A stretch of 64,000 nucleotides of DNA, taken from an uncultured Candidatus Saccharibacteria bacterium. Its GTDB lineage: Bacteria > Patescibacteriota > Minisyncoccia > Phycocordibacterales > UBA9973. The position numbers were made by a program, and so were the translations under genes. The notes under the pieces were generated by a model. That model saw only the letters and a list, made by a program, of their open reading frames with translations, made no database searches and was not told the DNA's origin. Below are positions 14,047 to 32,640 of the stretch, one piece after another (within the stretch, counting starts at the first letter, position 1; every line of letters starts with the position of its first letter). The stretch spans positions 291,595-355,594 of the forward strand of contig CAZWAV010000001.1 of NCBI GenBank assembly GCA_964631935.1, read 5' to 3'.

Positions 14047-14062
14047 AAGGGCTTAAGCCCTT
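14047..14062 (-). terminator. Perfect palindrome aagggctt/aagccctt downstream of the surface-operon SBP gene and upstream of gyrB
   Basis: 16-nt perfect inverted repeat with a U-rich tract on the minus strand. Confidence 0.35.
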
Positions 14063-18063: not shown

Positions 18064-19087
18064 GGTTGGCTTCGTTTTGTGTATTGTTCATACCAACACG
18101 AGCCTTTTGTATAATATGTCTATTGTATCGTCGTATAAGCTTTCTTCCTCCCCAAAATACGATTATAAATATAACAAGAAGACATATGAGTAGCTGCCAT
18201 GGGAACACAAAGAAGAATGCTGTTTTACTAACACGCGTAGCATTTGTTCCGTACAAAAGGCTCATCTTTGCAAAATAAGGGCCGAAAGCAAAGTTGTGCC
18301 ATTCATAAAGTGCTTGATTAAAAAATTGATTAATCTTTCCAGTAGGGGCAACATAATCTTTGTCTCGCGGATTTTTCACCCAGTCTACAGTAAAATGACG
18401 AGTGCTATTGGGTAAAATGTTACCCGATCCAGGGTTTGCATCTATTTTATCTTCAGGAATATATACTATGTCATGCATAGTAATTTTACCGACAGGTTTG
18501 ATACGATCTCCCCCATCGTTTTTGAAGCGATACTCAAAAGATACAGGCAATGTTGTATACCAAGTTTTATGATTTAGAGTAGAAAAAGATACTAAGCCAC
18601 CAGCTTCTTTTACATCGCCTGACACAGACAAAAGTACTAACATTCCAATTTTTGCACCAATAGAAACAGAAGATGCCCCTGTAACATTTGGAGTTGTCCC
18701 CCAAAAGACTGCAGCAAAATGACCCCCTGCTTCAGCGGTATTGGGAATATTTATACTAACTGGAACAATAATACTTTGTCCGGGTTTTAGAGCTACTGAT
18801 GTTTCAGTAGACATCCATTTATCAAGATCATCTTTGGATTCAGTGAATGCTGGATTGCCTGTTTCCCCTTGAGCTTCAAAGTTTGCAAATGATGAGTAGA
18901 AAATTTGAGTATTCTTCGTATCGTTTGTGAGTGTCATATCCTGCTTTACCGTCTCACCAGGATTCCCTTGTAACTCAACACGAGGAGGAGAAATAGATAG
19001 AGCATCCACCCTAAAAGGCCCTAGCAAAAGAACACCCGATATGATCGCAATCTGTAGAAGTATGCTTTTTGCAATTCGAGTGTTCAT
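18056..19087 (-). CDS. Secreted beta-rich protein with C-terminal TM anchor (DUF916-like architecture)
   Basis: 343 aa. Signal peptide, then LSISPPRVELQGNPGETVKQDMTLTNDTKNTQIFYSS, which resembles the N-terminus of DUF916/DUF3324 cell-surface proteins. A C-terminal hydrophobic helix is followed by a basic tail (RKLIRRYNRH). Confidence 0.45.
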   Translation of the reverse strand: MNTRIAKSILLQIAIISGVLLLGPFRVDALSISPPRVELQGNPGETVKQDMTLTNDTKNTQIFYSSFANFEAQGETGNPAFTESKDDLDKWMSTETSVALKPGQSIIVPVSINIPNTAEAGGHFAAVFWGTTPNVTGASSVSIGAKIGMLVLLSVSGDVKEAGGLVSFSTLNHKTWYTTLPVSFEYRFKNDGGDRIKPVGKITMHDIVYIPEDKIDANPGSGNILPNSTRHFTVDWVKNPRDKDYVAPTGKINQFFNQALYEWHNFAFGPYFAKMSLLYGTNATRVSKTAFFFVFPWQLLICLLVIFIIVFWGGRKLIRRYNRHIIQKARVGMNNTQNEANHV

Positions 19088-19108: not shown

Positions 19109-20224
19109 TTAGTATGTAGCAGTAGCGACGTACGTATGACTTGCAGTATATGTACCAGCTTCAGTCACAGGAGCAATGTTTGCCATGTAGCGAACAGAGT
19201 ATGTTGTGGTTGCTGATGGAGTAGTAGAAGAAGCAACTTGAGCAGGAGTTGATGCTGTTCCAGTGTATGCATAACCTGCTGCTGCGTATGGTGCAGTTAC
19301 TGAACCAGAACCTCCAGATGCAGTAAGTCTTATACCAAATTGTTCTGTACCAGGAGAAGATGCTGTGTTAGAAGCTAGAGCTGTTATAGTATTTGCTCCA
19401 GAAGTGAGAGTTGCGCCTTGGACAGTTATAATATATCCAGATGTTGCATTTGTTCCAGCTGTCATATTGAAAGCTTCTGTTTCTGCTGTTGTTGGACATG
19501 TTACAGCTCCAGGATCAGTACCTTGAGCGAAACATATACCTGCTGTACGAAGATTACCGTAGAATATTGTATTGTCAGATATCGTAAATGAAATAGTAGG
19601 CTGAACAAGAGCATTAACTACCACAACATCGTCAGCAATTATTGGAATACCTATTGTACCTGTATCACCAAAAGCTCCAGATATAGCAAGCAATGTTGTT
19701 CCAGCTCCCCCATTTGTTATTTGGAAAGTACCAGTTCCACCTGTTGTGGCATTTGTTCCTATTCTAATTGTTATCACAGAGCCAGCAGCGATAGCTGTAC
19801 CTGAAGTCTGAGAATCAAATGTTATGACAGTTGAAGATGTTCTCACTACCTTATAAGTAGACGCTCCTGCAGTTCCGGCGAGAGTTATAGGAGCACCGTC
19901 ATCTTCTAGGTCAATATCAGCAAATGTAAGTCCTACTGGAATACTTGTTGAGTTATCAAAAGTTAGAACTATTGCACCAACAGTACTATTGGCTACACCT
20001 GTAGGAGTAGTAAATACTATAGTATGGTTGGCTACAGTTGATGCTTTTTCAGCATTAAATGCACCTGTAGCAGGTGAGAGTGTATCTTTGAGAGCTGTAA
20101 GAGCGGCAGCATTAGCGACCTTTATCACTTGTGGAGCAAATGATGTAAACATAACGAGGGTAATTATAACCAGGGCACTTGTTATCTTTGAAAACGAGGA
20201 TTTTTTCATTCTTAATATCTTCAT
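19109..20224 (-). CDS. Secreted Thr/Ser/Gly/Ala-rich beta-strand protein with a conserved C-terminal domain (paralog A)
   Basis: 371 aa. Signal peptide (..VANAAAL). Low-complexity TGT/GAT-rich body. The C-terminal ~140 aa are shared with the next gene (PTISFTISDN..FYGNL, EQFGIRLTASGGSGSVTAPYAAAGYA, TTYSVRYMANIAPVTEAGTYTASHTYVATATY). No Trp, so it is not a WxL domain. Confidence 0.6.
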   Translation of the reverse strand: MKILRMKKSSFSKITSALVIITLVMFTSFAPQVIKVANAAALTALKDTLSPATGAFNAEKASTVANHTIVFTTPTGVANSTVGAIVLTFDNSTSIPVGLTFADIDLEDDGAPITLAGTAGASTYKVVRTSSTVITFDSQTSGTAIAAGSVITIRIGTNATTGGTGTFQITNGGAGTTLLAISGAFGDTGTIGIPIIADDVVVVNALVQPTISFTISDNTIFYGNLRTAGICFAQGTDPGAVTCPTTAETEAFNMTAGTNATSGYIITVQGATLTSGANTITALASNTASSPGTEQFGIRLTASGGSGSVTAPYAAAGYAYTGTASTPAQVASSTTPSATTTYSVRYMANIAPVTEAGTYTASHTYVATATY

Positions 20225-20330
20225 AATAAATTGCTAATAATTGATAATTGTATACATACTACTTTATGTGTTTATTTTAACATATTTAATAGGTAAAAGA
20301 TACGAAAATAATCACTCTGTGGATAACTTA

Positions 20331-21347
20331 CTAGAAGGTTCCTGTAACTATATAAGTGAGCATTGAAGTATATGTACCAGCAGCAGTGGTCGGGCTAATA
20401 TTACCTAAATACCTAACGGAATAAGTCGTTGTAGTGCCATCCCCTGCACCACTTGCTACCTGACTCGGGAACCCTGCTGTATCAAGAGCAAAACCAGATG
20501 CAGCATAAGGGGCAGTTACCGAACCAGAACCAGTTGCTACCATGCGTAAACCGAATTGCTTTGTTCCTATGCTTGGAGCTGTGTTTGTGTTTCCTATTGC
20601 TGTAATAGTATTTACTCCAGAGGTTAAAGTATTACCACTAACAGTTACGACATAACCACTTGTAGCATTTGTACTCGCAGAAATAGTATGAGCTTGGACT
20701 TCTGTAGCACTACCTGTACTAGTATCGGCATAACGCGACGCGCTAGAAGAAAGTGATCCGAAATTCACTGAATTTGTAGAAATAGAGAAACTAATAGAAG
20801 GAGTGAAAACTTTAGCACAAGCCTTTATTGTATAAGCACTACCATCACCCACATGTGCATTGTCTATTGATGACATTGAAAAAAGAGTCGTGTCATAACC
20901 GGTGCAGTTCGTGTTTTGATAACCAGTAGTTATTATATCTCCAAAAGTTGTATCCGAAAGACAGACATTTGTACCATATGTATTTACACTACTCTGCTGT
21001 GTTGTGCCATTGGTTGAGCCTGAAATACGAGCAATACTTTTAAAATTACCAGAGCAAGAATTTCCTATAGCAGAAGCGCTCGAGCAACAAACTACATTAC
21101 TTGCGTAATTTGCATTTGATTGACTTGGTAATTCAGTGTGAGCGTTAGTAGAACCAGACATACGTAGGAGAACAACAGAGCCACCAGTACAAGCCGCCGC
21201 TGTAGTAACAGAGCAAGAAAGCGCCGCATATATTGTAGATATGGGATAGAAAAATAGAGCTGATAGTACTACGATAAGTAAGTACTTAGAAACTCTTGTC
21301 TTTGATTGGATCTGATGTAGTCTCAGGTGGTGTAGTATTTTGATCAT
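20331..21347 (-). CDS. Secreted Thr/Ser/Gly-rich, Cys-containing beta-strand protein with the same conserved C-terminal domain (paralog B)
   Basis: 338 aa. Signal peptide, then a Cys-rich N-terminal half (about 12 Cys). The C-terminal block KQFGLRMVATGSGSVTAPYAASGFA...TTTYSVRYLGNISPTTAAGTYTSMLTYIVTGTF is colinear with paralog A. The 62-nt overlap with the upstream gene suggests the start may be downstream or non-ATG. Confidence 0.6.
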   Translation of the reverse strand: MIKILHHLRLHQIQSKTRVSKYLLIVVLSALFFYPISTIYAALSCSVTTAAACTGGSVVLLRMSGSTNAHTELPSQSNANYASNVVCCSSASAIGNSCSGNFKSIARISGSTNGTTQQSSVNTYGTNVCLSDTTFGDIITTGYQNTNCTGYDTTLFSMSSIDNAHVGDGSAYTIKACAKVFTPSISFSISTNSVNFGSLSSSASRYADTSTGSATEVQAHTISASTNATSGYVVTVSGNTLTSGVNTITAIGNTNTAPSIGTKQFGLRMVATGSGSVTAPYAASGFALDTAGFPSQVASGAGDGTTTTYSVRYLGNISPTTAAGTYTSMLTYIVTGTF

Positions 21348-21750
21348 TTGTAGGATTACTTATAGGCGCAGTTTCTATAATTTTATCTATACTAGGACGA
21401 TAAAGCACTGCGCGCCCTGCTTTACTAAAAATAAGAACCTTATCCCCTTTTTGAGATTGAGTAAAAAAAGATTGATTCTTGAGCGCTGTTGGATCAGAAA
21501 CAGTTGCGATAGTTGGTTCTTCACCAGTGGGTATCAAATATAATCTTGCAACTTTACCAAGTAAGTCTTTTGCTTCTTGTTTACTTTTATCATTTACAGC
21601 TATGTCTTTTTGTATGGTATGTAGTTTGTAATAGAAATACCCACTCAAACAAAGAGCAATGACTACAATTATCATCATAACAAGATTTATAAATTTTTGT
21701 TTAGTCATTGGAATTTTTAGTTTAGTTGTATCTATGTCTATAGATGTCAT
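21286..21750 (-). CDS. Small single-pass membrane protein
   Basis: 154 aa. N-terminal TM helix (LVMMIIVVIALCLSGYFYY), a periplasmic domain and a Pro/Thr-rich C-terminus. It lies between the giant gene and the TS-rich paralogs. Confidence 0.45.
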   Translation of the reverse strand: MTSIDIDTTKLKIPMTKQKFINLVMMIIVVIALCLSGYFYYKLHTIQKDIAVNDKSKQEAKDLLGKVARLYLIPTGEEPTIATVSDPTALKNQSFFTQSQKGDKVLIFSKAGRAVLYRPSIDKIIETAPISNPTNDQNTTPPETTSDPIKDKSF

Positions 21751-21816: not shown

Positions 21817-24800
21817 TTATAGATATTTTCTGAAAATACTGAGACCAAAAGGTTCTGAAAATACGAGCATCCTTTTTATTTTATATAAAAATCCTATATC
21901 ACCACCAGAACCTCCGCCGCCTCCGCCTCCGCCAGTAGTAGGACAATTGCTATTAAACACCACAGAAGGAACAGTAGTATAGTTTGACCCACCATTATCT
22001 ACTGTCACGCTTGATACTGCGTCACCGGTCAAAACTGCTGTGCCTAAAGCACCTGACCCTCCGCCTCCACAGAATAATACCGTTGGAACAGATGTATAAC
22101 CACTACCACCAGAATTTATAGTTACACTCTGTACAATATTTGAAGAGACTACTGCTGTAGCGATTGCTGTAGTAGCTCCACCTCCACCAGAACCTCCGCC
22201 ACCGCCACCGCCTTGATCTCCATCTGGAGTAGCTGAAGATTCTATATTTCCACCACCACCACTTTTAGTGATAGTAATGAAAGACCAACACACGCCATTA
22301 TTACCATAATCATATATATTAGTACTCGCTCCTACAGTATTACCACCACTACATCCAGAATCTTTTACTTTTAAATAAGATATGGAGCTGGAGCCTGACA
22401 GTGTCATCAACCATTGAGAAGTCGGGGTGTCAGAATTTATTGAAATAGGATTTCCTTCAATTCCAGTCAAGGTTAATGTGTTTGCAAAAGTATAAGTATT
22501 ACCAGCTTTAAACTGCAAAGTTGAACCAGCCGTGGTGTTTGTTAGATTATAAAAAGTAGTATTTGAACTGCCTAAAATATTTGCAGTTAATGTAGAGTTA
22601 GTTGGTACAAAAGTTACCGTACCATTACTGTGTGTAAATGTGCCGCTATTACTAAAATCTCCATTAATGGTTAGACTTGTTGGTGCTACAAAAGTACCAT
22701 CTGAAATAGTTAAGTTTCCACCAATTGTCGTTACGCCAGTTAGGGTCAGGGTCCCGAGGCCAGCCTTAGTAAGTCCGCCAGCTGAGCCGACAGTACCAGC
22801 GATACTTACACTATTTCCATTTGTATCAATTGTGCCATTTCCAGTGAGTGTAACTGCACGAGTAGAAAGAGAGGTGATCGTTCCTGATGCCTGCAGAGTA
22901 CCACCGTTGAAAATTAGGGTATTAGTAGAAGTTCCATCACCAAGTGCAGCTGTAGCGTTGGCGACAATTGTTCCTCCAAGTATCATAGTAGGTCTACTGT
23001 AAGTGTTGGCTCCAGAGAGCGTCAGTGTGCCCGCCCCATCCTTAGTGAGGTTACCACTGGTAGTACTTATGATACCGGTGACCGATGTACTTCCAGCACC
23101 ACCAAAGATAGCGTTGAATGTATTTCCAGACATTGTTGGAAATGTTAGTGTTCCAGAATCAGAATTAATACGGACATTTGTTGTACCGAGTGTAACGTTT
23201 GCACTAATTGTATTCGAGTCAGCAACATTTCTAATCGCACCAGTATTATTAACACCAGTACCATTAGCTGTTATAAGTTTTGTGCTTGGTAAAGTAATAT
23301 TATTTTGTAATTCTAGTGTCGCCCCACCAGAAATAGTCGTAGTCAGTGAAGTTCCAGAAGCACCCAATGCGTTACTATGTTGAAGATTTAAATAGCCGGC
23401 GTTTAAAGCAATAGAGGTGCTCGTAAAACTATTGTCACCCGAGAGAATAACCCGACCAGCGGTATTTTTCGCCATTCCACCAGCTAACGCACTCCCTAGT
23501 ACTGCACTAATCGTCCCTTTTTCAAGAATGAATTGTTGTGTCGATGTAAGTGTTGCCGCTCCGCCAGTACTTACAATTGAGCCATCAATTAATGTAACCG
23601 TCGAAATATTTGTTTCATTAAATCCTTTTAAATCCAAGGTTCCACCAGCCACGCTTACAGTTGGCGTAGAGAGTGCATCAGCTATACCGTACGCAAGTGT
23701 CCCCTCGTTAATGCGCACTCCACCGGAAGCACCTGTGTTAGCGGCAGTGAGTGTAAGGGTACCCGCACCATATTTAGTTAACACTATACCAGCAGTACCC
23801 ATATTACCAGAGATAGTTGTCGGACCAGATCCGCCAACCCAAAAAGATGAAGCCCCAGAAACAGCGCCTGTAATTGTCAGTACCCCAGCTCCATTATTCA
23901 CAATACGGGAACTTGTTTGAGAAAGAGTAGCAAACGTACTACCTGTGGAAGAGTTACTAATCAATGCTCCCCCATTCAAAAGACCACTACCAGCGAGCGT
24001 CAAAGGCTCCCATGTCGAAGCTCCTCCAACACTATAAGTAGATAGGTCGAGCACTGCCCCAGCAGAAACAGTAACACCTCCAGCAATTGTACCAAAAGGG
24101 GTGTTCGTAGCGCCGCCGTTTGCTCCAAGCTGGAGTGTCCCTGTACTCACCGTCATTGCGCCAGTCATGGTGTTTTGCCCAGCCAAAATAAGAGTCCCCG
24201 AACCTTCTTTTGTGAGAGTACCAGAACCTGACCACACACTGTTTGTAGATTGAGTAAAATTACCCACCGCCACCACGGTAAGTGCGAAGTTCCCCGAAAT
24301 ATTACCAGTCAACGTCGTCATTCCAGTACCATGGTTAGCAATACGTGAAGCAGCACCTAGGGTGACAGCTCCAGTATATGATATTGAATTATTAGAACTA
24401 TTTATAAATGCACCTGTGTTTGCAATACCACTTCCGTTAATCGTGATGGGCTCAGCAGTACCAAGAGTAAAGCCATTCAAATCCAACATCGCACTACTTG
24501 CAACAGTGGTCGCTCCAGCAGTTGTGCCGAGTGGTGTGTTGGTTGCTCCACCGGCTGCGCCCAATCTTAGTAATCCGAAACTAACAGTGGTTACTCCAGT
24601 ATAGTTACTATCTCCCCAGATCTCCCATGTCCCTGCATCATTTTTAACAAGTGATCCCGCAGTTGATGTATTGACTTGAGTTTTAAGGACGCCATTTCCA
24701 AGACCTCTCAGTGTCAAAGCAAATCCAGTCCCTGTCATGCTTCCCGTGTTTGAAAGAGTCATAGTGCCATAGTTAGCAGTGATGGTCGCAGCCGCACCAA

Positions 24801-27800
24801 GAGTAATGAGCCCACTGTATGTGACGGCTGTTGATGATGTGTTCATGAGAGCCCCTTTCCCACCAACACCAGTACCACTAATAGTGAGTGCTTCAGCTGT
24901 ACCTAAGGTAAATCCATTTAGGTCAAGAGAGAATCCGCTTGCAACAGTAGTACCTGCAGCAGTTGTACCTAGTGGTGTATTGGTTGCTCCACCAGCAGCA
25001 CCCAGTCTTATCGTACCAGCACTAATTGTAGTTAATCCTGTATACGTATTACTACCAGCTAGTTCCAATACTCCAGCACCAGCTTTTCCAAAAGTAAATC
25101 CGCCACTTATCACTGCAGATATAACTGCGTCATTATCCATAAGTCCGTCACCAATAGTAAACGTTGCATTAGCTCCAAGACCCAAATTCCCTGTTATTAT
25201 TGAAGCAACATTGTTATTGGCAATCGTGGTAAATGTTCCATTGCCAGTAAGAGTACCTGCACCAGTAGCGATACTACCAGCGTTAATAGTAATGGTACCA
25301 ACCGTGTCAGAGTTGGCATTAAGGTTATACATACCTCCTACTATTGTTACCCCTCCACTAGAAATAACATTGCTTGCGCCAGCGGTAAGTGTTGCATTAT
25401 TAATAAATGTCGTACTTGTATAAAGGTTAGCAGCGCTAAGTGTGACATTGCCAGACCCACTTAATACAACTGACCCTGTTGTAGCCGTACCAATTACGGC
25501 AGAAATAGTTGAAGTATTTGTTGCTAAAATATCTAATTCAAGTGCACCAATACCGAGTGTTGTGTTTGCTCCAGCAATATTTGTGGCTGAGTTTATTAAA
25601 ATATTTCCTGCTAAAGAAGCCTGGGAAATCGTAATAGTAGCTGCACTTCCCGGGTTCGTTATAGCAAAACCGTTAAGTATAAGAGAGTTAATACTCACCG
25701 TACTTGCCGTAGTGTCAGCTGAGAGCTTTACGTTTGTATTTGTTGTTAGACTTGTAGAATATTCACCAGAGAAACCAGCACCATTGAGTAATCGAAGACC
25801 ATTGGTATTACCAAGGCTGTAAGTTACCATATCAGTACCTGTTCCACTTAAAGAATTGTCTCCAAAAGCACCTTTGATGACGCTTGCAGTAGTACTGTTG
25901 GCTGCTCCGGCAGCACCGGTCAATAAACCAGTTGAGGTAGTAAACATTAAAGTAGAAACATTGGCAGCAGGAGTAGAACCAAAGCTTGTACCACGGAAAA
26001 GTATCGTCGCTCCAGCGGTACGAGAGAAGGATGCGAAAGTCATCGTCGTTGATCCGCCAGCGCCAGGAGTGATGGTGACGACACTATGACCAGACGAAGG
26101 GGCAAGTGCACCTGTTGTTTCAGAAGAAGCCCCAGAAGCATTACCAATGAAGTTAAAGTTACCACCGTTGAGAGTTAGAGCGAGCGCATCACCAAGACGA
26201 CTTGCAACAGCTGTAGCACTATTATCTAGAGTTAATGTACCGCCTAAGTTTACTGTAATTGTAGTACTTACAGCTGAGCCTGATCCACTCAAAGTGAGTG
26301 TCCCCGCATTGATTGCTGTCCCACTACTAATAGTATTTGCGCCTGTCAACGTAACCGTATTGTTCGTATTTTTTGCGACTGGAATTGCTCCAGCCAAAAC
26401 TGCGCTAATTGTTCCACTTTCCAATGTATAGGAAGCTGCAGCGGTGAGTGTACCGTTTTGAATTGTTCCACCAACAAGAGTGACTGAACCGATAGTATCA
26501 GTACTTGCAGCCATATCAAATATTCCCCCAGCCACTGTTAAGTTTGTAGCTGCCAGCACCGTGACGTTACTCCCGTAAGCAAACGTCCCCGCATCAACTC
26601 TCGTTGCACCAGTATACGTCTCCGTCCCTGTTAGTGTCAGTGTACCGGAACCCTGCTTTGTTACCGTACCGGCACCAATACCAATAACACCAGTACTAAA
26701 CGCGATATTACTTGTCCCACTAAGATAGAGTGCAAAGGCCCCCGATGCTCCACCGGTGAATGTTACGAGTCCTGATCCAGAGTTTGCAATACGAGTGTCA
26801 GTCGCTTGAGTGATCGCACCACTATACGTGAGTGCACCACCGGAATTAACGATGGCTCCCCCATCACTTATTCCCCGTCCGTTCGTTGTTAGTGGTTCGG
26901 CAGCAGTCAATGTAAAGCCGTTCAAATCGAGTACTGCCCCACTCAGCACAGAAGTAGCTCCAGCAATAACACCAAGCGGGGTGTTTGTCGTACTCCCTGT
27001 CGCACCCATCTTAAGCGTTCCAACGTTAATACTCGTCGCGCCGGTAAAGGTACTCGCGCCAGAGAGTGTCCATGTTCCAGCACCAATCTTAGTAAGTGTT
27101 CCTCCAGTAGTACCGATGATACTAGAGAGTGTTCCGTTACCTGTTCCTCCTAATACTAGCCCGGTATTGGCTCCTGTTATAGTACCTGCAGCTGTTAGAT
27201 TAATAGTCCCTGAATCCGCCTTGATAGTAGTCGCAGAACCAAGTGTAATTAATCCACTATATGTCACAGTTGAACCAGAACTATTCATTAATGCGCCACT
27301 TGCAAAATCGCCGAGTCCGTAGCCGACACCGTTTAGTGTCAGTGGCTCCGCTATTCCAAGGCTGTATCCATTGAGATCAAGTCGTGCACCAGTAGCTACG
27401 GTTGTGATACCTGCAGTTGTACCAAGAGGTGAGTTTGTCCCACCAACAGAGACTGCACCAAGTTTTACAGTACCAACACTGATAGTAGTTGCCCCCGTAT
27501 ATGATGAGTTACCATTTGAAAGGGTAAGTGTACCTATTCCATCTTTAGTTAAAGTACTCGTACCAGACCTTACTCCTGAATACGTAATATCACTAAATCC
27601 TCCGAAGGTTAGTGCAAAGTTTCCAGATATATCACTACTGATTGTCATCGTCCCAGCATCAGCATTGATACGTGCTGCGGCGGTAAGTGTCAGAGCACCG
27701 CTGTACGTTGCAGGTGAAGCTGAACTATTCATGATTGCACCCATATTACTACCACCTGAAGCACCAAAACCTGTTCCAGCTAAAGATGTTATTGCTTCAG

Positions 27801-30800
27801 CCGTACCAAGAGTGTAGCCATTTAGATCTAATGCTCCTCCATTTGCAATAGTTGTTCCAGTACCAGTCGTACCCAGTGGTGTATTGGTTCCGCCCCCGGT
27901 TCCTCCAAGTTTTAAAATACCACTAGTGATAGTAGTTACTCCAGTGTAAGTATTGTCGCGAGTAAGAGTGACAACACTATCAGCTGCTGCACTTGTCGCA
28001 ATGCGTGTTACAGTAGCAGCTCCACCACCTAAGATTGCGCTAACTGTACCTTCACGTAAACTATAAGAAGTTCCAGAGAGTATTCCTGACGTTCCAGTTA
28101 TGGTTCCATTTTGCAACGTAACTGCTCCAACCGTATCAGAATTGCCAGCAATATCTAATGTTCCCCCTACTACCGTAACTCCCCCACTCGAAAGTACATT
28201 GCTTGCACCATATGTCAGTGTTGCATTATTGACTGCTGTTAAACCAGTAAAAGCGTTCGCCGCAGAAAGGGTGATATTCCCCGATCCACTGAGCGTTAGT
28301 GAGCCTGCTACGGCAGTTCCAATGACAGCAGAAATCGTTGAGTTTGCGGTTGCTAAAATATCAAGTTCGTTGGTTGTAATACCAATAGTGGTACTAGCCC
28401 CTGCGATATTATTTGCAGAGTTTATTAAAATATTTCCTGCCAGTGACGCTGATGCCATCGTGATAGTCGCACTTGCGTTTGTGATATCGTAGCCATTCAA
28501 TATGAGCGAGTTAATACTCACCGTACTTGCTGCAGTATCAGCGATGAGCTTTACGTTTGTATTTGTTGTTAACGTAGAAGAATACTCTCCAGAAAAACCA
28601 GTACTATTAAGTAATCGTAATCCGTTAGTGTTCCCTACGTTATACGTCACCATGTCAGTACCTGTACCACTCAAAGAGTTATCACCGAAGGCACCTTTGA
28701 TGACACTGATTGTTGAGGAGTTGGCTGCTCCGGCAGCACCAGTGAGTGTTGGAGCAGTTGTAAATAGTACAGTAGACACATTGGCGGCAGGAGGCGAACC
28801 AAGACTTGTACCCCTGAACAATACTGTCGCACCAGCAGTACGAGAAAGACTCGCAAACGTCATCGTCGTTGATCCTCCAGCGCCAGGAGTAACCGTGACG
28901 ACATTGTGACCAGACGCGGGAGTAAGGGCACCGGCTGTTTCGTATGCAGTACCAGAAGTGTTACCGATGAAGTTAAAGTTACCGCCGTTCATCGTGAGAG
29001 CTGCTGTATCACTAATACGGTTGAGAATTGTTGTGGATGTATTATCAAGTGTCAGAGTTCCACCACTACCTATCGTAATAGTCGAATTCGGTATAGCCCC
29101 CGCACTATTAAGTACAATCTCTCCTCGACTAAGGTTGGTAGCCCCCGTAAAGTTACTGAACCCTTCCATGGTTAATACTCCAGTATCATTTTTTGTGAGC
29201 GTCGCAGTAGTACCGTAGATAGGTGCAGTCTCCGTAAATGTTACGTTACCTGCACCACCGACAACAAGCCCTAAAGTTGTTGCTGATAAGCCTTTACTAT
29301 CAATAGTTAGCGTAGTACCCGTATCAGACTCAATCATATTTGCAGTACCACTAATTGTCAGCAGACCAGTTATAGTGTTGTCCCCAGTCATATTACGAAT
29401 TGCTCCAGTGTAGAGATGTCCTGTTCCAGAAAAGGTTATGTATTCAGGGACAGAGAGACCGCTCCCATCGATTTGTAGTGTCGCGCCGGAAGTTACCGTA
29501 GTGACACCATCGATAAGACCGAGGGCTGTACTGTCTTGAATTTTCAAGATACCAGCAGCAACACTAGTGTTACCAGTATAAAGATTTGGGCGTGTCAGAG
29601 TTACTGTTCCTAGAGTATTTTTGGTCAACGACGATCCGTCACCAGCGATAATAGCGCTGATTGTCCCTGCGTTGAGTGTCCAACTGACGGCTGATAGCAC
29701 CCCTGTAGTACCGGTGATTGTACCACTGGATAAATCAGTTGTACCGAGAGTTACCGTTCCTCCGAGCATGTCAGAGTACGAGGCGATATCAAGTGTGCCA
29801 GCATTAACAGTAACACTACTCGAAAGAAGAGCGTTATCAATACCATATAGAAGAATTCCTGCATTTATGAATGTTGTCCCAGTATAGGTATTGGGGAAAT
29901 TGTATTTGAGTGTACCAGAACCATTTTTGGTAACGGTACCAGAACCAATACCAATAGGTGCTGTTGTGTACGTGATATCGCCTGCACCATCAATGACAAG
30001 AGGAAATGCACCGCTCATACCGCCAGTAATGGTAAGTGTGCCTGAGTCTGAATCTATTTCAGCACCACCCGCAATCATAGTAATCAGTCCCCCAAATGTA
30101 TTGTTGTCACTAACGTTACGCAATGCGCCCCCATTAGAAACACCATAACCACGCAATGCCAATGCTTCATACCCGATGTTTATAGTCCCCTGTAACTCTA
30201 GCGCTGCACCACCGACAACTTCAGTACCATTAGTGGTAGACCCGTTAGTACCGAGCGCTCTATCGTTTTGAGCATTAACGACACCGACGTTAATTTTTAA
30301 AACTCCACCAAATGTATTTGCCCCAGAGAGCACGAGCTCCCCTGTTCCTTCTTTGTTGATACCACCAACACCTGCGATTCTCCCACTGATCGTCAATGTC
30401 TCTGCAGTATTGGTCACGACAATATCTCGAGTGACATCGAGACGAATATCTAATGCAATTGTATTTCCTCCGGATGCTACACTATCGGTGATTCCAGCAA
30501 GACCTGCTCCGAGTATAATCGGATTACCAGAAAGAGTATAACCACTCCCCGAAAAGGTAATAGAGTTGAAAATTGTGTTTTCAATAAAATCGTTGGTATT
30601 GGAAAGATTTGAAGCACCGTTTGGAAATACAAGATCGTCTCCTGTAACAGGAGCAGTGCCACCACTCCAGTTGCTCCCAACAGACCATGCAGTACTCGTT
30701 GTACCAGTCCAGGTTCTTGTTGCAGCTTCCGCTCTGTTTACATTCAGAGACAAGGAAAAAGCGATAGCAAAAAAGATTGCGAAAATTCGTATTGGATTTG

Positions 30801-30894
30801 TAAAAATTTTTTTCACAGGCTCGTACTTTGGTAAACTAGATAGATAGTCGACTAAAGTTAGTATTGATAGAGATACTACGTAATTATACCCCAA
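21817..30894 (-). CDS. Giant (3025 aa) surface protein built from autotransporter-associated/PATR-type beta-helix repeats
   Basis: N-terminal hydrophobic segment (IRIFAIFFAIAFSLSL) then AEAATRTWTG. Dozens of repeats of the form (GxGTLTLSGANTYTGxTTINAGTLxLG..NALG). The composition is heavily Gly/Thr/Ser/Ala/Asn-biased and Cys-free. There is a long internal duplication and poly-Gly tracts near the C-terminus. The + strand Pro/Val-rich ORFs across this interval are antisense shadows. Confidence 0.8.
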   Translation of the reverse strand: MGYNYVVSLSILTLVDYLSSLPKYEPVKKIFTNPIRIFAIFFAIAFSLSLNVNRAEAATRTWTGTTSTAWSVGSNWSGGTAPVTGDDLVFPNGASNLSNTNDFIENTIFNSITFSGSGYTLSGNPIILGAGLAGITDSVASGGNTIALDIRLDVTRDIVVTNTAETLTISGRIAGVGGINKEGTGELVLSGANTFGGVLKINVGVVNAQNDRALGTNGSTTNGTEVVGGAALELQGTINIGYEALALRGYGVSNGGALRNVSDNNTFGGLITMIAGGAEIDSDSGTLTITGGMSGAFPLVIDGAGDITYTTAPIGIGSGTVTKNGSGTLKYNFPNTYTGTTFINAGILLYGIDNALLSSSVTVNAGTLDIASYSDMLGGTVTLGTTDLSSGTITGTTGVLSAVSWTLNAGTISAIIAGDGSSLTKNTLGTVTLTRPNLYTGNTSVAAGILKIQDSTALGLIDGVTTVTSGATLQIDGSGLSVPEYITFSGTGHLYTGAIRNMTGDNTITGLLTISGTANMIESDTGTTLTIDSKGLSATTLGLVVGGAGNVTFTETAPIYGTTATLTKNDTGVLTMEGFSNFTGATNLSRGEIVLNSAGAIPNSTITIGSGGTLTLDNTSTTILNRISDTAALTMNGGNFNFIGNTSGTAYETAGALTPASGHNVVTVTPGAGGSTTMTFASLSRTAGATVLFRGTSLGSPPAANVSTVLFTTAPTLTGAAGAANSSTISVIKGAFGDNSLSGTGTDMVTYNVGNTNGLRLLNSTGFSGEYSSTLTTNTNVKLIADTAASTVSINSLILNGYDITNASATITMASASLAGNILINSANNIAGASTTIGITTNELDILATANSTISAVIGTAVAGSLTLSGSGNITLSAANAFTGLTAVNNATLTYGASNVLSSGGVTVVGGTLDIAGNSDTVGAVTLQNGTITGTSGILSGTSYSLREGTVSAILGGGAATVTRIATSAAADSVVTLTRDNTYTGVTTITSGILKLGGTGGGTNTPLGTTGTGTTIANGGALDLNGYTLGTAEAITSLAGTGFGASGGSNMGAIMNSSASPATYSGALTLTAAARINADAGTMTISSDISGNFALTFGGFSDITYSGVRSGTSTLTKDGIGTLTLSNGNSSYTGATTISVGTVKLGAVSVGGTNSPLGTTAGITTVATGARLDLNGYSLGIAEPLTLNGVGYGLGDFASGALMNSSGSTVTYSGLITLGSATTIKADSGTINLTAAGTITGANTGLVLGGTGNGTLSSIIGTTGGTLTKIGAGTWTLSGASTFTGATSINVGTLKMGATGSTTNTPLGVIAGATSVLSGAVLDLNGFTLTAAEPLTTNGRGISDGGAIVNSGGALTYSGAITQATDTRIANSGSGLVTFTGGASGAFALYLSGTSNIAFSTGVIGIGAGTVTKQGSGTLTLTGTETYTGATRVDAGTFAYGSNVTVLAATNLTVAGGIFDMAASTDTIGSVTLVGGTIQNGTLTAAASYTLESGTISAVLAGAIPVAKNTNNTVTLTGANTISSGTAINAGTLTLSGSGSAVSTTITVNLGGTLTLDNSATAVASRLGDALALTLNGGNFNFIGNASGASSETTGALAPSSGHSVVTITPGAGGSTTMTFASFSRTAGATILFRGTSFGSTPAANVSTLMFTTSTGLLTGAAGAANSTTASVIKGAFGDNSLSGTGTDMVTYSLGNTNGLRLLNGAGFSGEYSTSLTTNTNVKLSADTTASTVSINSLILNGFAITNPGSAATITISQASLAGNILINSATNIAGANTTLGIGALELDILATNTSTISAVIGTATTGSVVLSGSGNVTLSAANLYTSTTFINNATLTAGASNVISSGGVTIVGGMYNLNANSDTVGTITINAGSIATGAGTLTGNGTFTTIANNNVASIITGNLGLGANATFTIGDGLMDNDAVISAVISGGFTFGKAGAGVLELAGSNTYTGLTTISAGTIRLGAAGGATNTPLGTTAAGTTVASGFSLDLNGFTLGTAEALTISGTGVGGKGALMNTSSTAVTYSGLITLGAAATITANYGTMTLSNTGSMTGTGFALTLRGLGNGVLKTQVNTSTAGSLVKNDAGTWEIWGDSNYTGVTTVSFGLLRLGAAGGATNTPLGTTAGATTVASSAMLDLNGFTLGTAEPITINGSGIANTGAFINSSNNSISYTGAVTLGAASRIANHGTGMTTLTGNISGNFALTVVAVGNFTQSTNSVWSGSGTLTKEGSGTLILAGQNTMTGAMTVSTGTLQLGANGGATNTPFGTIAGGVTVSAGAVLDLSTYSVGGASTWEPLTLAGSGLLNGGALISNSSTGSTFATLSQTSSRIVNNGAGVLTITGAVSGASSFWVGGSGPTTISGNMGTAGIVLTKYGAGTLTLTAANTGASGGVRINEGTLAYGIADALSTPTVSVAGGTLDLKGFNETNISTVTLIDGSIVSTGGAATLTSTQQFILEKGTISAVLGSALAGGMAKNTAGRVILSGDNSFTSTSIALNAGYLNLQHSNALGASGTSLTTTISGGATLELQNNITLPSTKLITANGTGVNNTGAIRNVADSNTISANVTLGTTNVRINSDSGTLTFPTMSGNTFNAIFGGAGSTSVTGIISTTSGNLTKDGAGTLTLSGANTYSRPTMILGGTIVANATAALGDGTSTNTLIFNGGTLQASGTITSLSTRAVTLTGNGTIDTNGNSVSIAGTVGSAGGLTKAGLGTLTLTGVTTIGGNLTISDGTFVAPTSLTINGDFSNSGTFTHSNGTVTFVPTNSTLTANILGSSNTTFYNLTNTTAGSTLQFKAGNTYTFANTLTLTGIEGNPISINSDTPTSQWLMTLSGSSSISYLKVKDSGCSGGNTVGASTNIYDYGNNGVCWSFITITKSGGGGNIESSATPDGDQGGGGGGGSGGGGATTAIATAVVSSNIVQSVTINSGGSGYTSVPTVLFCGGGGSGALGTAVLTGDAVSSVTVDNGGSNYTTVPSVVFNSNCPTTGGGGGGGGSGGDIGFLYKIKRMLVFSEPFGLSIFRKYL
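25250..26250. repeat. Copy 2 of an ~1-kb intragenic segmental duplication inside the giant gene (about 85% identical to 28080-29080; offset ~2.82 kb)
   Basis: Antisense ORFs 24779..25423, 25442..25822, 25856..26089 and 26147..26431 are colinear and highly similar to 28100..28492, 28502..28909 and 28958..29218. In the sense protein the blocks LTLDN..GGNFNFIGN(T/A)SG...GHxVVT(V/I)TPGAGGSTTMTFAS(L/F)SRTAGAT(V/I)LFRGTS..LAGNILINSA.NIAGA.TT(I/L)GI occur twice, about 940 aa apart. Confidence 0.7.
28080..29080. repeat. Copy 1 of the intragenic segmental duplication
   Basis: See the partner entry. The constant ~2.82-kb offset between matching antisense ORF segments indicates a near in-frame duplication. 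Confidence 0.7.
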
Positions 30895-30964
30895 ATATAC
30901 TACATATGTATAGTAAATATAGTGTTAATAAACCTATTAGTATATAATATTTCATAGAACAGAT

Positions 30965-31669
30965 ATGACTAGTGAAATATATAAAACAATTGAAAGTGAA
31001 AGCATCCGTAGACAATGGGATAAGGAGAAGAATATTTGGTACTTCTCTGTGGTAGATGTCATAGGTATAGTTACTAGTAGTACTGACGCTAGAAATTATT
31101 GGAAAGTACTAAAGAATAGATTAAATAAGGCTAATCCGGAGTTGGTTACAAGATGTAACCAACTGAAAATGCCATCAAGCGACGGTAAAAGTTACCTGAC
31201 TGATGTTGCAGACAGTGAGACTATATTAGAGATTATCCGAGCAATTTCTATCCCCTATGTTGCCCCTTTTAGAAGATGGTTTAATGATATTGAATCACAG
31301 TCTAGTCCTAAAAATGAATACGAAGAAGAAACAGAAAAGGCTGAGCTTACAATAGATGCATACGAGACAGACAAAGATATAATTTTAGAATCTATGGTCG
31401 CAGGTGTATCAATAGAAAATTTATCTATCTCTATAACTTTGAGCGAGGTTATTATTTCAGGTAAACGATTAATTCCAGAGAATATATCTCACCTAGATTA
31501 TGTAATCCAGGAAATTTATTGGGGGGCATTCTCTCGCACGATTCCCTTGCCTTCCGAAATAGATATAGATGAGGCGCAAGCGAGTATAGAGCATGGATTG
31601 CTTAAAATAAAGTTACCAAAAATAAATAAACTTCGCACAAGAATAATAAAAATAAAATCACTTGGCTAA
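30965..31669 (+). CDS. Two-domain protein: Bro-N-like N-terminal domain fused to a C-terminal alpha-crystallin/Hsp20 domain
   Basis: 234 aa. The N-terminus (IRRQWDKEKNIWYFSVVDVIGIVT) resembles the Bro-N/KilA-N DNA-binding fold. The C-terminal ~100 aa are a clear sHSP alpha-crystallin domain (IDAYETDKDIILESMVAGVSIENLSISI...ISG.R........Y...E...GAFSRTIPLPSEIDIDEAQASIEHGLLKIKLPK). Confidence 0.6.
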   Translation: MTSEIYKTIESESIRRQWDKEKNIWYFSVVDVIGIVTSSTDARNYWKVLKNRLNKANPELVTRCNQLKMPSSDGKSYLTDVADSETILEIIRAISIPYVAPFRRWFNDIESQSSPKNEYEEETEKAELTIDAYETDKDIILESMVAGVSIENLSISITLSEVIISGKRLIPENISHLDYVIQEIYWGAFSRTIPLPSEIDIDEAQASIEHGLLKIKLPKINKLRTRIIKIKSLG

Positions 31670-31690
31670 TTAGCCAAGTGATTTTATTTT
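31653..31690. terminator. Bidirectional rho-independent terminator between convergent genes (aaaatcacttggctaa/ttagccaagtgatttt)
   Basis: Perfect 16-bp inverted repeat at 31655-31686 with A/T runs on both sides. It sits exactly between the stop of the Hsp20-fusion gene and the stop of the beta-lactamase-like gene. Confidence 0.6.
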
Positions 31691-32640
31691 TATTTACTAG
31701 TATTGTACGCATGCTCTGAAATTTCTTTCATTAGTCCTCTTGCCCAAGCTCTCGTTTCTTCTGTGGAATCTTTTCCTTTAATTATGACAGTAATCATATA
31801 TGGTTTCCCTGGAATATATACAATCCCTGAATCTGCAAAAATATTGTACTCTATGTTCTCGCCATACTTATGTGCAAATTTAACATTAGAAGGAATACCT
31901 TGCGATAGGTAATCTTTGAATGTCGCTTTGGACATGTAATCTAAGATTTTTTCAGATAATTCTGGACGTAGAAAGTTTGAAGTATAAAGTACTCGCAGTA
32001 GACGTGTATATTCTTTTGCGGAAACAAATCCTTTCTCATTATACAAATCCTGTAAGCCTACTTTTTCCTGAAAAACAATATAATCAGAAAAATCTAGTTG
32101 GTGTTTAAATATATTTTGAGCAGTATTGTCTGAGTTAACTAGTAACTCTTCTAATAGTTTTTCTACTGTTATCGGCTTATCCCCGATAGTTTTATACAGA
32201 GCCCCTGAATCAGAAGAGAGATCAGCTGGGTCTGCTTTAAGCTCTGTACTCCAAGACAAAGCTCCACTTTCAACCTTTTTTGCAATAAGTATTGCTTGTA
32301 CAAGTTTACTTAAAGATGCAGGAAATAGATGCAGATCTTTATTTACGCTTATGTTTGCTCCAGAGTTAATATTTTCATAATAAATAGAGATATTGTCTGG
32401 ATTTTTTTTACCAAAATCCATTAAATATGAACGTAAATCCTCTATGTTAGTTAAATAATTTTCTTGTGGAATAAACTTTTGAAGTGGGTCGAGCATCGGA
32501 AATTCTGTATCTTTGACTGGGTTAAGGCCAAAATATTGTGGTGAAAACCATGCAGCTATTGGTATGCACAAAGCAAGTATGAGCATAAAGATTCTTTGCT
32601 TTTTAAGTTCTTTAGATAATCTTTCAATTTCCTTATTCAT
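31690..32640 (-). CDS. Membrane-anchored serine hydrolase of the class-A beta-lactamase / penicillin-binding-protein fold
   Basis: Start set at internal MNKEIERL (ATG at 32638-32640), followed by a TM helix. The SxxK motif (PASLSKLV), the SDN motif (NSDNTA) and a KTG-like KYG motif are present. The upstream Gln/His/Leu-rich 72 codons of the track ORF overlap the giant gene's Pro-Thr tail and are judged non-coding. Confidence 0.65.
   Translation of the reverse strand: MNKEIERLSKELKKQRIFMLILALCIPIAAWFSPQYFGLNPVKDTEFPMLDPLQKFIPQENYLTNIEDLRSYLMDFGKKNPDNISIYYENINSGANISVNKDLHLFPASLSKLVQAILIAKKVESGALSWSTELKADPADLSSDSGALYKTIGDKPITVEKLLEELLVNSDNTAQNIFKHQLDFSDYIVFQEKVGLQDLYNEKGFVSAKEYTRLLRVLYTSNFLRPELSEKILDYMSKATFKDYLSQGIPSNVKFAHKYGENIEYNIFADSGIVYIPGKPYMITVIIKGKDSTEETRAWARGLMKEISEHAYNTSK

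Follow-up and report, generated by a model that had tools for sequence, protein, structure and literature searches.

A giant PATR-type beta-helix protein encoded beside a Pam pilus and dockerin-cohesin gene cluster in a CPR bacterium

The giant gene and its neighbours

The stretch of DNA that was analysed (64,000 nucleotides, hereafter the window) carries an open reading frame on its minus strand at 21817-30894, in a single frame and 3,025 codons long when counted from TTG. All features described below lie on this strand. The first-pass annotation had read the whole frame as a 3025-aa protein; the single ORF was confirmed, but the product is likely 2,999 aa long. The likely start is the GTG at 30816 rather than the TTG at 30894, to which the mechanical ORF runs. 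The coding sequence then spans 21817-30816 (2,999 aa plus stop), and the product begins VKKIFTNPIRIFAIFFAIAFSLSLNVNRAEA|ATRTW. An independent JGI gene call (P0001) gave the identical product of 2,999 aa.

Giant repetitive genes misassemble easily, and the GC content of this gene exceeds that of its flanks; both points would suit an artefact of assembly or annotation, be it collapsed repeats, a chimera or a pseudogene. However, the same 2,999-aa protein was found on two JGI contigs, and 25 GTDB species representatives have colinear orthologs of equal length. No DNA tandem repeats were detected in the gene by TRF. The elevated GC content follows from a Gly/Ala/Thr-rich composition (Thr 17%, Gly 16%, Ser 11%, Ala 10.5% and Asn 7.6% of the translated protein). 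The ORF is thus not chimeric, a flaw for which a check had been advised, and the artefact reading is effectively refuted already, its probability being close to nil.

The giant gene is the first in a same-strand run of surface genes, as had been noted earlier. A promoter-like site (TATACA-18-TATAAT, 10/12, at 30883-30912) lies approximately 67 nt upstream of the GTG start; it is a consensus match only, and the overall number of such sites was no higher than in the shuffled expectation. A strong terminator was found upstream of the giant at 31646-31693, and the next such site downstream is a terminator-like hairpin at 14047-14062. Together, these sites are weak evidence for the limits of the run.

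The first-pass annotation had also placed the giant immediately upstream of a cohesin/dockerin array. It does lie upstream on the same strand, but four genes intervene: one for a small membrane protein, two for Pam pilins and one for a chaperone-like protein. The small single-pass membrane protein (154 aa, 21286-21750) is encoded by the first gene of an ancestral pilus/dockerin/cohesin operon. The first Pam pilin (20331-21347, with its true start probably downstream of 21347) combines a Cys-rich N-terminal domain with a Pam pilin C-terminal domain (NF058581, 76 bits, cut-off 55). The second (371 aa, 19109-20224) scored 96.3 bits against the same cut-off, and its sequence search against the PDB was empty. 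The membrane-anchored chaperone-like protein (18056-19087) starts with a signal peptide; its AF2 model (pLDDT 81.6) shows two beta-sandwich domains and, at residues 297-336, a C-terminal TM helix. WxLIP and the chaperones of chaperone-usher systems are its best structural counterparts: Foldseek matched the model to WxLIP (9i1y, E = 1.4e-11) and CsuC (1.6e-9), and also to RbmA, CfaA, DraB and FimC. All of its 816 homologs at E ≤ 1e-5 are labelled hypothetical, and the named ones belong to Paceibacterota or other Patescibacteria.

The next gene (17182-18063) codes for a secreted Ig-like protein with a C-terminal dockerin-like duplicated segment. Its Big_6 (E = 3.3e-5) and Dockerin_1 (E = 1.1e-3) matches are both below cut-off; duplicated D/N-rich loops are visible in its sequence, and its orthologs give weak Dockerin_1 matches. 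Two cohesin-like proteins of 292 and 386 aa follow (15204-17194), each with a C-terminal TM helix, assigned from sequence and operon position. Neither of them gave a direct Pfam match. The products at the corresponding operon position in three other loci (L005, L034 and L035) match PF00963 (Cohesin), and the window's cohesin-region proteins were linked to this position by tblastn in L005 only. The last gene of the run (14098-15201) encodes a protein of the SBP_bac_3 family that contains a TM segment and a coiled-coil tail.

The conserved cluster reaches upstream of the giant, too. Conserved directly upstream is the gene for a membrane-anchored class-A beta-lactamase-fold protein with SLSK, SDN and KYG motifs (31690-32640). 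It is preceded by that for a second giant secreted protein of 2,177 aa (32684-39217), which is conserved upstream in the same cluster and for which no Pfam, NCBIfam or PHROG family was found. BamA/Omp85 was absent among the window proteins scanned, as was any POTRA or ShlB-type gene among the neighbours of the giant.

Repeats, shaft and termini of the giant

The repeats had been described as being of the PATR type, and the HMM scan bore this out. PF12951 (PATR) matched 16 stretches of the giant with E = 5e-45 and 151.6 bits (cut-off 27), and TIGR02601 (autotrns_rpt) matched 17 stretches with E = 5.9e-51 and 169.7 bits (cut-off 19.85), both far above the cut-offs. The NCBIfam scan of the whole protein yielded autotrns_rpt and a weak ShdA match only. 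In Pfam, PATR was the only family at E ≤ 0.1; at this threshold there was neither an autotransporter barrel nor a TPS domain nor a dockerin. The C-terminal 181-aa and 119-aa pieces gave no barrel match at E ≤ 10, and in the AF2 model of the C-terminus the cap is followed by a linker, small repeats and a disordered tail. The claim that a beta-barrel translocator is missing was thus upheld.

The internal repeats of the giant are visible at the protein level only. Whole-protein self-BLAST gave the identity match alone, and fragment-versus-whole BLASTP was used instead. It revealed a super-repeat of about 940 aa (ORF aa ~566-1500 versus ~1506-2450) with sub-periods of about 147-150 aa. Within the super-repeat lies a module of about 300 aa, present at aa 604-900 (28195-29085) and aa 1544-1843 (25366-26265), the two copies being 78% identical. 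The first copy contains few PATR matches, only at its edges.

The N-terminal signal segment that had been proposed was recognized as a Sec-type signal peptide of 31 aa (30724-30816). Read from the sequence, it has a basic N-region, a hydrophobic core and an AEA|A cleavage motif, and the motif A-x-A|A(T/V)(R/K)TWTG is kept in the orthologs. The mature protein begins with a beta-solenoid shaft and C-terminal cap (residues ~32-2846, 22279-30723), which is colinear and conserved across orthologs. Its PATR repeats are predicted to form a right-handed beta-helix, and AF2 gave a beta-solenoid with pLDDT 83-97 in a model that covers only the last 300 residues of the shaft. A sequence search of the giant against PDB chains was empty.

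Four elements follow the cap. A disordered Gly-rich linker (22174-22278, AF2 pLDDT <50) leads into two beta repeats of about 36 aa with the pattern GGSGYTSxPxVxF and one Cys each (21940-22173, AF2 pLDDT 65-80). No Pfam family matches this repeat, and the GGSGY family is widespread, with 6,051 representative proteins at E ≤ 1e-3 and up to 30 copies. A polyGly spacer (21901-21939) precedes a conserved C-terminal tail, DIGFLYKIKRMLVFSEPFGLSIFRKYL (21820-21900), and the AF2 pLDDT is 24-40 across spacer and tail. In the tail, the motif is followed by basic residues and then by a mixed hydrophobic segment. Since K, R and E occur throughout, the tail of this giant is no TM helix.

A search for a dockerin-like or anchor segment at either terminus had been advised. 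Pfam and NCBIfam revealed none: there was no dockerin in the whole protein or at its termini (Pfam), the dockerin-like module residing in the protein encoded at 17182-18063, and no recognised anchor or TM anchor at either end. A Pam pilin domain was likewise absent from the whole protein and from its last 119 aa (NCBIfam). No sorting signal (LPXTG, PEP-CTERM, GlyGly-CTERM, PGF-CTERM and similar) was matched in the last 119 aa by NCBIfam at E ≤ 1. When the 119-aa C-terminal module was searched against representative proteins for a shared anchoring module, only the generic GGSGY family was retrieved, and the tail itself was confined to what look like fragments of orthologs.

A beta-helix of this kind might also be a secreted enzyme or toxin, e.g. 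one that attacks the host envelope as a polysaccharide lyase or depolymerase. However, it is the shafts of adhesins or passengers that match best, and the likeness is that of a generic right-handed beta-helix. Moreover, Pfam and NCBIfam detected no lyase or hydrolase family over 3,000 residues, and the monotonous repeat has no obvious catalytic insertion. We consider an enzymatic role highly improbable.

Orthologs, gene order and fusions to the Pam domain

About 70 near-full-length orthologs of the giant were found. Over 27 full-length giants, the mean column identity is 57%, and the shaft does not change in length; the stretch after the cap is the sole variable region of the family. NCBI and JGI already name the Paceibacterota orthologs 'autotransporter-associated beta strand repeat' proteins. 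The protein family is thus already annotated and ordinary by itself, and the new part is its genomic context.

The gene order is conserved in approximately 16 loci that have enough downstream sequence. In three sister species, the PATR giant itself ends in a Pam pilin domain, and a fourth fusion was found on a fragment. The Pam C-terminal domain of the fusion giants P0053, P0056, P0068 and P0071 scored 58.6-65.3 bits against the cut-off of 55, and a purpose-built HMM detected the domain with E ~1e-37 in the giants of L014, L019 and L024. It is precisely these loci that have neither the small membrane protein nor the first pilin; the second pilin comes directly after the fused giant, and then the chaperone, dockerin protein and cohesins. 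The fused giant replaces the first two downstream genes in the sister species. The fused giants also carry an N-terminal extension of about 800 aa with a possible uncleaved signal anchor, which complicates a simple tip model.

Other Paceibacterota have the pilus/dockerin/cohesin operon but no giant, with the operon occupying the same place in the chromosome, beside gyrB (L034, L035 and L036). The adjacency of the giant to this operon may therefore partly reflect one ancestral insertion. The 154-aa membrane protein was considered as a dedicated anchor of the giant and rejected, as it heads these giant-less operons.

The tail motif, D-[ILVST]-G-[FYL]-[LIF]-[YF]..[RK][RK], was found in 33 of the 72 best matches, of which roughly 60 look complete. 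The tail was also considered as a donor strand for a pilin groove, which is unlikely. The window and L021 have near-identical giant tails, although the C-terminal domains of their pilins belong to different subtypes, and this likeness argues against a donor-strand role; in addition, AF2 predicted the tail to be disordered. The subtype-B pilin domains, e.g. those of L021, are missed by the NCBIfam Pam model and were linked via purpose-built HMMs and shared N-terminal domains.

The giant could instead be a free-standing surface fibre or coat component, independent of the pilus and retained by its own polyGly-DxGF tail. The tail might then be a peripheral membrane or cell-wall anchor or a processed sorting signal, with the beta-lactamase-fold enzyme or the second giant involved. 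Indeed, many Pam operons lack the giant, the second giant and the beta-lactamase-like gene, which together make up an add-on at the upstream end, and L023 retains the giant and the small membrane protein with no pilus, dockerin or cohesin genes downstream. The beta-lactamase-like gene adjoins the giant in every case and keeps its SxxK/SDN motifs, and some orthologs lacking the full tail motif stop 2-3 residues into it, as if pre-processed. However, the tail is missing from many orthologs and therefore cannot be essential to the giant family. It is not a TM helix and matches no known sorting-signal model, and giants fused to the Pam domain exist in the sister lineages. We therefore regard a pilus-independent fibre as rather unlikely.

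Proposed role and comparison with known systems

The giant is real: a beta-helix fibre protein secreted by an ultrasmall bacterium of the CPR (Paceibacterota/Minisyncoccia). We favour, with some reservation, the reading that it is a long-reach, host-directed adhesin of the Pam pilus/dockerin-cohesin apparatus, to which it would be held non-covalently. The first-pass annotation had called it an adhesin or host-interaction fibre. The fibre part is borne out by the PATR repeats and the AF2 solenoid, and we infer the adhesin part from fold and context. It had also been proposed to be cargo or a partner of the dockerin system. It may still be such a partner, as the giant stays beside the dockerin and cohesin genes in loci without Pam pilins. 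However, it has no dockerin, and in view of the PATR-Pam fusions of the sister lineages the Pam pilus is the best-supported partner.

In the favoured reading, the giant would be exported by Sec and its signal peptide removed. CPR cells have been described as lacking an outer membrane (doi 10.64898/2026.03.03.709456), and a barrel translocator is therefore not needed. The shaft would comprise about 2,815 residues, with approximately 20-21 residues per rung and an estimated length of roughly 60-70 nm, and would be closed by the C-terminal cap. Attachment to the cell apparatus would be through the C-terminus. In the fused giants, the Pam domain would accept the donor strand of the next pilin and give none, as in PamT, FimH and PapG. 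In the window, where the giant is unfused, it would bind non-covalently to the Pam pilus/dockerin-cohesin apparatus, whose genes lie directly downstream. The pilus would be assembled by donor-strand exchange from the two Pam pilins with the help of the chaperone-like protein, the mechanism being that of the Pam preprint, and it would probably be tethered via the dockerin protein and the two cohesin-like membrane proteins.

A more specific and decidedly speculative proposal, which we think improbable, is that the polyGly-D-x-G-F tail is a new CPR attachment or processing signal. It would load the giant on the Pam tip or adaptor or on the dockerin-cohesin anchor, either through the tail itself or through cleavage at D-x-G|F, for which the beta-lactamase-fold enzyme might be responsible; the sister fusions would bypass this step. 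If this reading of the tail were true, the Pam pili of Paceibacteria would carry tip adhesins in the form of beta-helices of about 65 nm. To our knowledge, no donor-strand pilus has such an arrangement.

PATR giants (PF12951, TIGR02601) of Verrucomicrobiota, Planctomycetota, Omnitrophota and CPR share the repeats and the N-terminal W..G..W...NW...P..D..F start. Compared to these, the window clade stands out for its unusually constant length (~3,000 aa) and its colinearity, with the column identity given above, and it is embedded in a Pam pilus/dockerin/cohesin cluster. In contrast to type Va autotransporters (Hap, Hbp, pertactin, IcsA, Vag8), the giant has no C-terminal 12-stranded barrel (PF03797). 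Since CPR cells also have no outer membrane as described, the giant is no autotransporter, despite the family name, which is a misnomer in this case. It likewise differs from the TpsA proteins of two-partner secretion in having neither a TPS domain (PF05860) nor a TpsB-type transporter among its neighbours.

The fused sister giants may be compared with FimH and PapG, the two-domain tip adhesins of chaperone-usher pili. By analogy, they have an N-terminal part that would reach the receptor, a C-terminal pilin domain and no donor strand of their own. However, their 'lectin domain' would be a beta-helix of ~3,700 aa, there is no usher and no outer membrane, and the window copy is unfused. Tapirins of Caldicellulosiruptor are beta-helix adhesins encoded beside a type IV pilus locus in a monoderm; they are far smaller than the giant, lack PATR repeats and go with a different pilus type.

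Pam is a donor-strand pilus of CPR bacteria (Troman et al., bioRxiv 2026, doi 10.64898/2026.03.03.709456), reported chiefly from Saccharimonadia and Microgenomatia. A term search of the preprint text found no mention of autotransporter, adhesin, Paceibacter or Parcubacteria, and our literature searches found no paper on PATR giants in CPR. As in the Pam operon, the downstream pilins of the window carry the Pam C-terminal domain, and a PapD/FimC-like, two-domain, TM-anchored chaperone is present. The domain of the fused sister giants would, by analogy, be acceptor-only like that of the tip pilin PamT, whereas the window's giant itself has no Pam domain. In further contrast to the Pam operon, no RbmA-like PamR terminator (N-terminal strand, C-terminal TM) was recognised; the dockerin protein (17182-18063) and the cohesin-like TM proteins stand in its place and may be its equivalent.

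A life attached to host cells is assumed for CPR/Patescibacteria, and the contact molecules are known for a few cultured Saccharibacteria only. The Pam pilus, described in 2026, had no adhesin assigned to it, and the giant, fused or adjacent, is a concrete candidate for the part that contacts the host. Pam-type operons appear to be common in Paceibacterota, judging from the number of chaperone-like homologs.

The cluster also resembles the WxL clusters of Firmicutes. Both have a small subunit, a large subunit with an N-terminal binding domain and a C-terminal shared domain, and a TM-anchored two-Ig partner. WxL proteins have been described as peptidoglycan-bound platforms, not filaments (2023, PMC10599100). 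Compared by sequence only, 14 Pam C-terminal domains gave no Pfam match to WxL (PF13731) at E ≤ 1, and a profile of the Pam C-terminal domain had no sequence match among PDB chains. The chaperone-like model, however, best matches the WxLIP of E. faecium, including an entry bound to a long WxL protein, and in this respect suggests a structural bridge between the Pam system of CPR bacteria and the WxL/WxLIP clusters.

A Sec-exported PATR beta-helix protein

The first-pass annotation had described a single giant ORF of the PATR type at 21817-30894. Indeed, the ORF listing of the window contains one uninterrupted ORF there, on the reverse strand, whose translation is rich in Thr, Gly, Ser, Ala, Leu and Asn. 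PATR was the sole Pfam family matched (16 stretches, E=5e-45), and the NCBIfam model autotrns_rpt matched in 17 stretches. This description held, but the start had to be revised once the strand was taken into account. TTG is the first codon of the mechanical ORF. Translation from the GTG at 30816 instead begins with a textbook Sec signal peptide (VKKIFTNPIRIFAIFFAIAFSLSLNVNRAEA, followed by ATRTW) and yields a 2,999-aa product (21817-30816), exactly the gene call of JGI on independent contigs. No tandem repeats were found in the gene at the DNA level. The protein has a super-repeat of ~940 aa, which encloses a 78%-identical module of ~300 aa and sub-periods of ~150 aa. The raised GC content of the gene is due to its amino-acid composition.

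A protein search returned ~70 near-full-length relatives (55-75% identity). The few that bear source names are Paceibacterota or Falkowbacteria 'autotransporter-associated beta strand repeat-containing protein' entries. Twenty-seven relatives were colinear in the alignment, with a mean column identity of 57%, and a scan of GTDB species representatives gave 25 orthologous loci, from MAGs of Minisyncoccia, Paceibacterota and Nomurabacteria. An assembly chimera, which had been considered as the origin of the ORF, is excluded by the identical product on independent JGI contigs and the colinear orthologs. The giant is real and under constraint; it belongs to an already annotated family, and the added value lies in its genomic context. 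Among the compared loci from other genomes, many TPA_asm MAGs with a Paceibacteria-type locus (L009-L030) are titled 'uncultured Candidatus Saccharibacteria' or 'uncultured Gammaproteobacteria', labels that look wrong.

Pfam and NCBIfam searches with the whole protein and its terminal pieces detected neither a barrel nor a TPS domain, a dockerin or any known sorting signal, in agreement with the earlier claim that a beta-barrel translocator is absent. Since the barrel test fails, the giant is no autotransporter; it is a genuine Sec-exported PATR beta-helix fibre of a CPR bacterium.

The C-terminal end was modelled with AlphaFold2 (last 460 residues, input alignment of 12 sequences). The model shows a solenoid of three strands and ~20-21 residues per rung (pLDDT 83-97), closed by a cap. 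Extrapolated from this C-terminal part to ~2,815 residues, the rung length would correspond to a rod of ~60-70 nm. Beyond the cap follow a Gly-rich linker modelled as disordered, two 'GGSGYTSxPxVxF' repeats that form a small beta unit (pLDDT 65-80), and a polyGly stretch with a 27-residue tail lacking confident structure (pLDDT 24-40). The ~36-aa repeat (21940-22173, reverse strand) is a member of a very large repeat family without a Pfam entry, with 6,051 representative proteins at E<=1e-3 (P0241-P0390 included), often in 10-30 tandem copies.

Within the giant family, variation is confined to the region after the cap, which marks the C-terminus as the partner-determining end. Depending on the ortholog, this region holds the tail, a bare polyGly end, a Pam domain, a Hint-like domain or an extra domain such as SPRY. 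In the 3,263-aa homolog P0013 (L003 and L017, 10001-19792), a Hint/intein-like module (CFIAGTKV...VVHN; faint PF14890 match) replaces the tail after two GGSGY repeats; other orthologs have SPRY or DUF2341 matches in its place. The tail motif D-[ILVST]-G-[FYL]-[LIF]-[YF]..[RK][RK].. is present in 33 orthologs. Many orthologs end 2-3 residues into it (..GGGGDIG, ..GGGGDSE) or finish in ..GGGG[AS]P; such ends would fit a putative processing site.

The Pam pilus module downstream

The giant had been placed immediately upstream of a cohesin/dockerin array. Both lie on the same strand, but other genes intervene. The giant is followed by a 154-aa single-pass membrane protein (21286-21750), two paralogous secreted proteins (20331-21347 and 19109-20224) and a 343-aa protein that carries a signal peptide and, at its C-terminus, a TM helix (18056-19087). 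Then come an Ig-like protein with a duplicated, dockerin-like segment at its end (17182-18063), two cohesin-like proteins with C-terminal TM helices (15204-17194) and an SBP_bac_3 membrane protein (14098-15201).

Pam is a donor-strand-exchange pilus of CPR bacteria, whose structure was determined by cryo-EM in Ca. Mycosynbacter amalyticus; its pilins combine a sandwich domain at the N-terminus, a linker strand that is donated and a truncated Ig-like domain at the C-terminus, PamC and PamD are membrane-anchored PapD-like chaperones, PamT is a tip pilin with the C-terminal domain only, and PamR is a TM-anchored, RbmA-like terminator (bioRxiv 10.64898/2026.03.03.709456). Both secreted paralogs match the Pam pilin model NF058581 'CPR_Pam_pilin_C' (76 and 96 bits, cut-off 55). 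In the AF2 model of the 343-aa protein (pLDDT 81.6), two beta-sandwich domains are joined by a long helix at the C-terminus. The top PDB matches of this model were E. faecium WxLIP, both unbound and in complex with a long WxL protein (E=1.4e-11), followed by RbmA and then the chaperones CsuC, CfaA, DraB, FimC and EcpB. The genes between the giant and the dockerin/cohesin genes are thus a Pam pilus module, to which the WxL/WxLIP clusters of Firmicutes are structurally related (PMC10599100).

The dockerin/cohesin pairing is kept in loci both with and without Pam pilins. The pair is likely the pilus anchor, and the dockerin protein and both cohesin-like proteins may form a split dockerin-cohesin anchor. 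These genes (15204-18063) stand where the Pam preprint has TM-anchored PamR.

The Pam pilin C-terminal domain occurs in two subtypes with a mutual identity of only 24-27% (window 19109-21347; L003, L008, L015, L021 and L029 versus L004, L009, L014, L019 and L024). Both pilins of a genome always share one subtype, and subtype B is not recognised by NF058581. Close relatives can differ: the window has A and L021, whose giant is 74% identical, has B, with unchanged pilin N-terminal domains, which looks like cassette replacement. The tails of these two giants are nearly alike, which argues against the tail being the strand donated to the pilin groove.

Directly after the signal peptide, the first pilins of L004, L008, L009 and L029 carry the module 'S(T/S)NF..GSSxNF..GSSTNFxGRYGFLYFP'; in the Pam-less loci L007, L012, L013 and L027 a module of this type is on the dockerin protein instead. 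The L009 module matches PamT profile positions 7-77, and the final 'GFLY' of the module sequence is similar to the first residues of the giant's tail (D-I-G-F-L-Y).

Probable coupling of the giant to the pilus

Gene order across loci was compared by tblastn and purpose-built HMMs. The 5' part reads second giant, beta-lactamase-like gene, (Bro-N/HSP20 gene, opposite strand), PATR giant; the 3' part continues with the 154-aa protein, [two Pam pilins and chaperone-like gene], dockerin protein, two cohesin-like genes and SBP. Four PATR giants among the homologs end in a Pam pilin domain (58.6-65.3 bits, above the NCBIfam cut-off), and the same fusion was found in the GTDB loci L014, L019 and L024 (E~1e-37, own HMM, bias filter off). 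These three lack both the 154-aa gene and the first pilin; directly behind the fused giant come a second-type pilin, the chaperone-like gene, the dockerin protein and the cohesins. The fused domain directly follows the cap, with no intervening N-terminal pilin domain or linker, so that a strand could be accepted, not donated. By analogy, this domain logic would be that of a tip subunit (PamT, FimH, PapG) and of 'large WxL proteins'. Fused giants (P0053, P0056; L019 4122-15698) also have a ~800-aa N-terminal extension ahead of the conserved 'ATWTG' start, opening with a TM-like segment without obvious cleavage motif, a possible signal anchor.

The giant hence stands at the head of a Pam-pilus and dockerin/cohesin surface cluster and is fused to a pilin domain in sister lineages. 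We consider it reasonably probable that it would act as a long-reach adhesin of this apparatus, with its C-terminal end as the point of attachment. The Pam preprint contains neither the giant-pilin fusion nor the polyGly-DxGF tail, nor a dockerin/cohesin pair as likely anchor, and none of the three was found in the literature searched.

The main alternative, a pilus-independent fibre held by its own tail, draws on the distribution of the genes. Giant-less operons (L034, L035, L036) run from the 154-aa protein through both pilins, the chaperone-like protein, dockerin and cohesins to gyrB, in L034 at the same chromosomal position between pheST and gyrB; the 154-aa protein therefore does not belong specifically with the giant. 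With 816 members at E<=1e-5, the chaperone-like family outnumbers the ~70 giants, indicating that the beta-lactamase-like gene and both giants are an upstream add-on of one subclade. Taken alone, the giant-pilus adjacency could be inherited, and L023 has no pilus genes downstream of the giant and the 154-aa protein. The PATR-Pam pilin fusions speak against such independence, which we regard as unlikely. In loci without Pam pilins (L005/L030, L007, L012, L013, L027), the giant still lies beside the dockerin and cohesin genes.

Upstream genes and transcription signals

Conserved immediately upstream of the giant, and present in two copies in L003, is a gene (31690-32640, reverse strand) for a membrane-anchored protein of class-A beta-lactamase fold (PF13354, E=4.9e-36; SLSK, SDN and KYG motifs). 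A strong bidirectional hairpin terminator with a 20-bp stem follows it (31646-31693). The best promoter-like site lies at 30912-30883 and the next terminator-like site at 14062-14047; these consensus-level signals weakly suggest one transcription unit from the giant through the SBP gene.

Between the beta-lactamase-like gene and the giant, a Bro-N-like/HSP20 fusion protein is encoded on the opposite strand (30965-31669), at the same position in many, not all, orthologous loci; its N-terminal half matches the phage family phrog_15286 (E=2.9e-30). The second giant (32684-39217, reverse strand) is a secreted protein of 2,177 aa with recurring '..GNVGIGT..P...L.V' motifs and a Pro/Thr-rich C-terminus. 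It matched no family in Pfam, NCBIfam or PHROG. Most loci retain it upstream of the PATR giant, at lengths of 2,100-3,350 aa, and it is a candidate for the 'tail fibre-like protein' mentioned in pam neighbourhoods (bioRxiv 10.64898/2026.03.03.709456). A further secreted beta-helix surface protein of 1,074 aa is encoded at 49994-53218 (reverse strand), with a Pel9A-like beta-helix, two Big_7 domains and one PKD domain.
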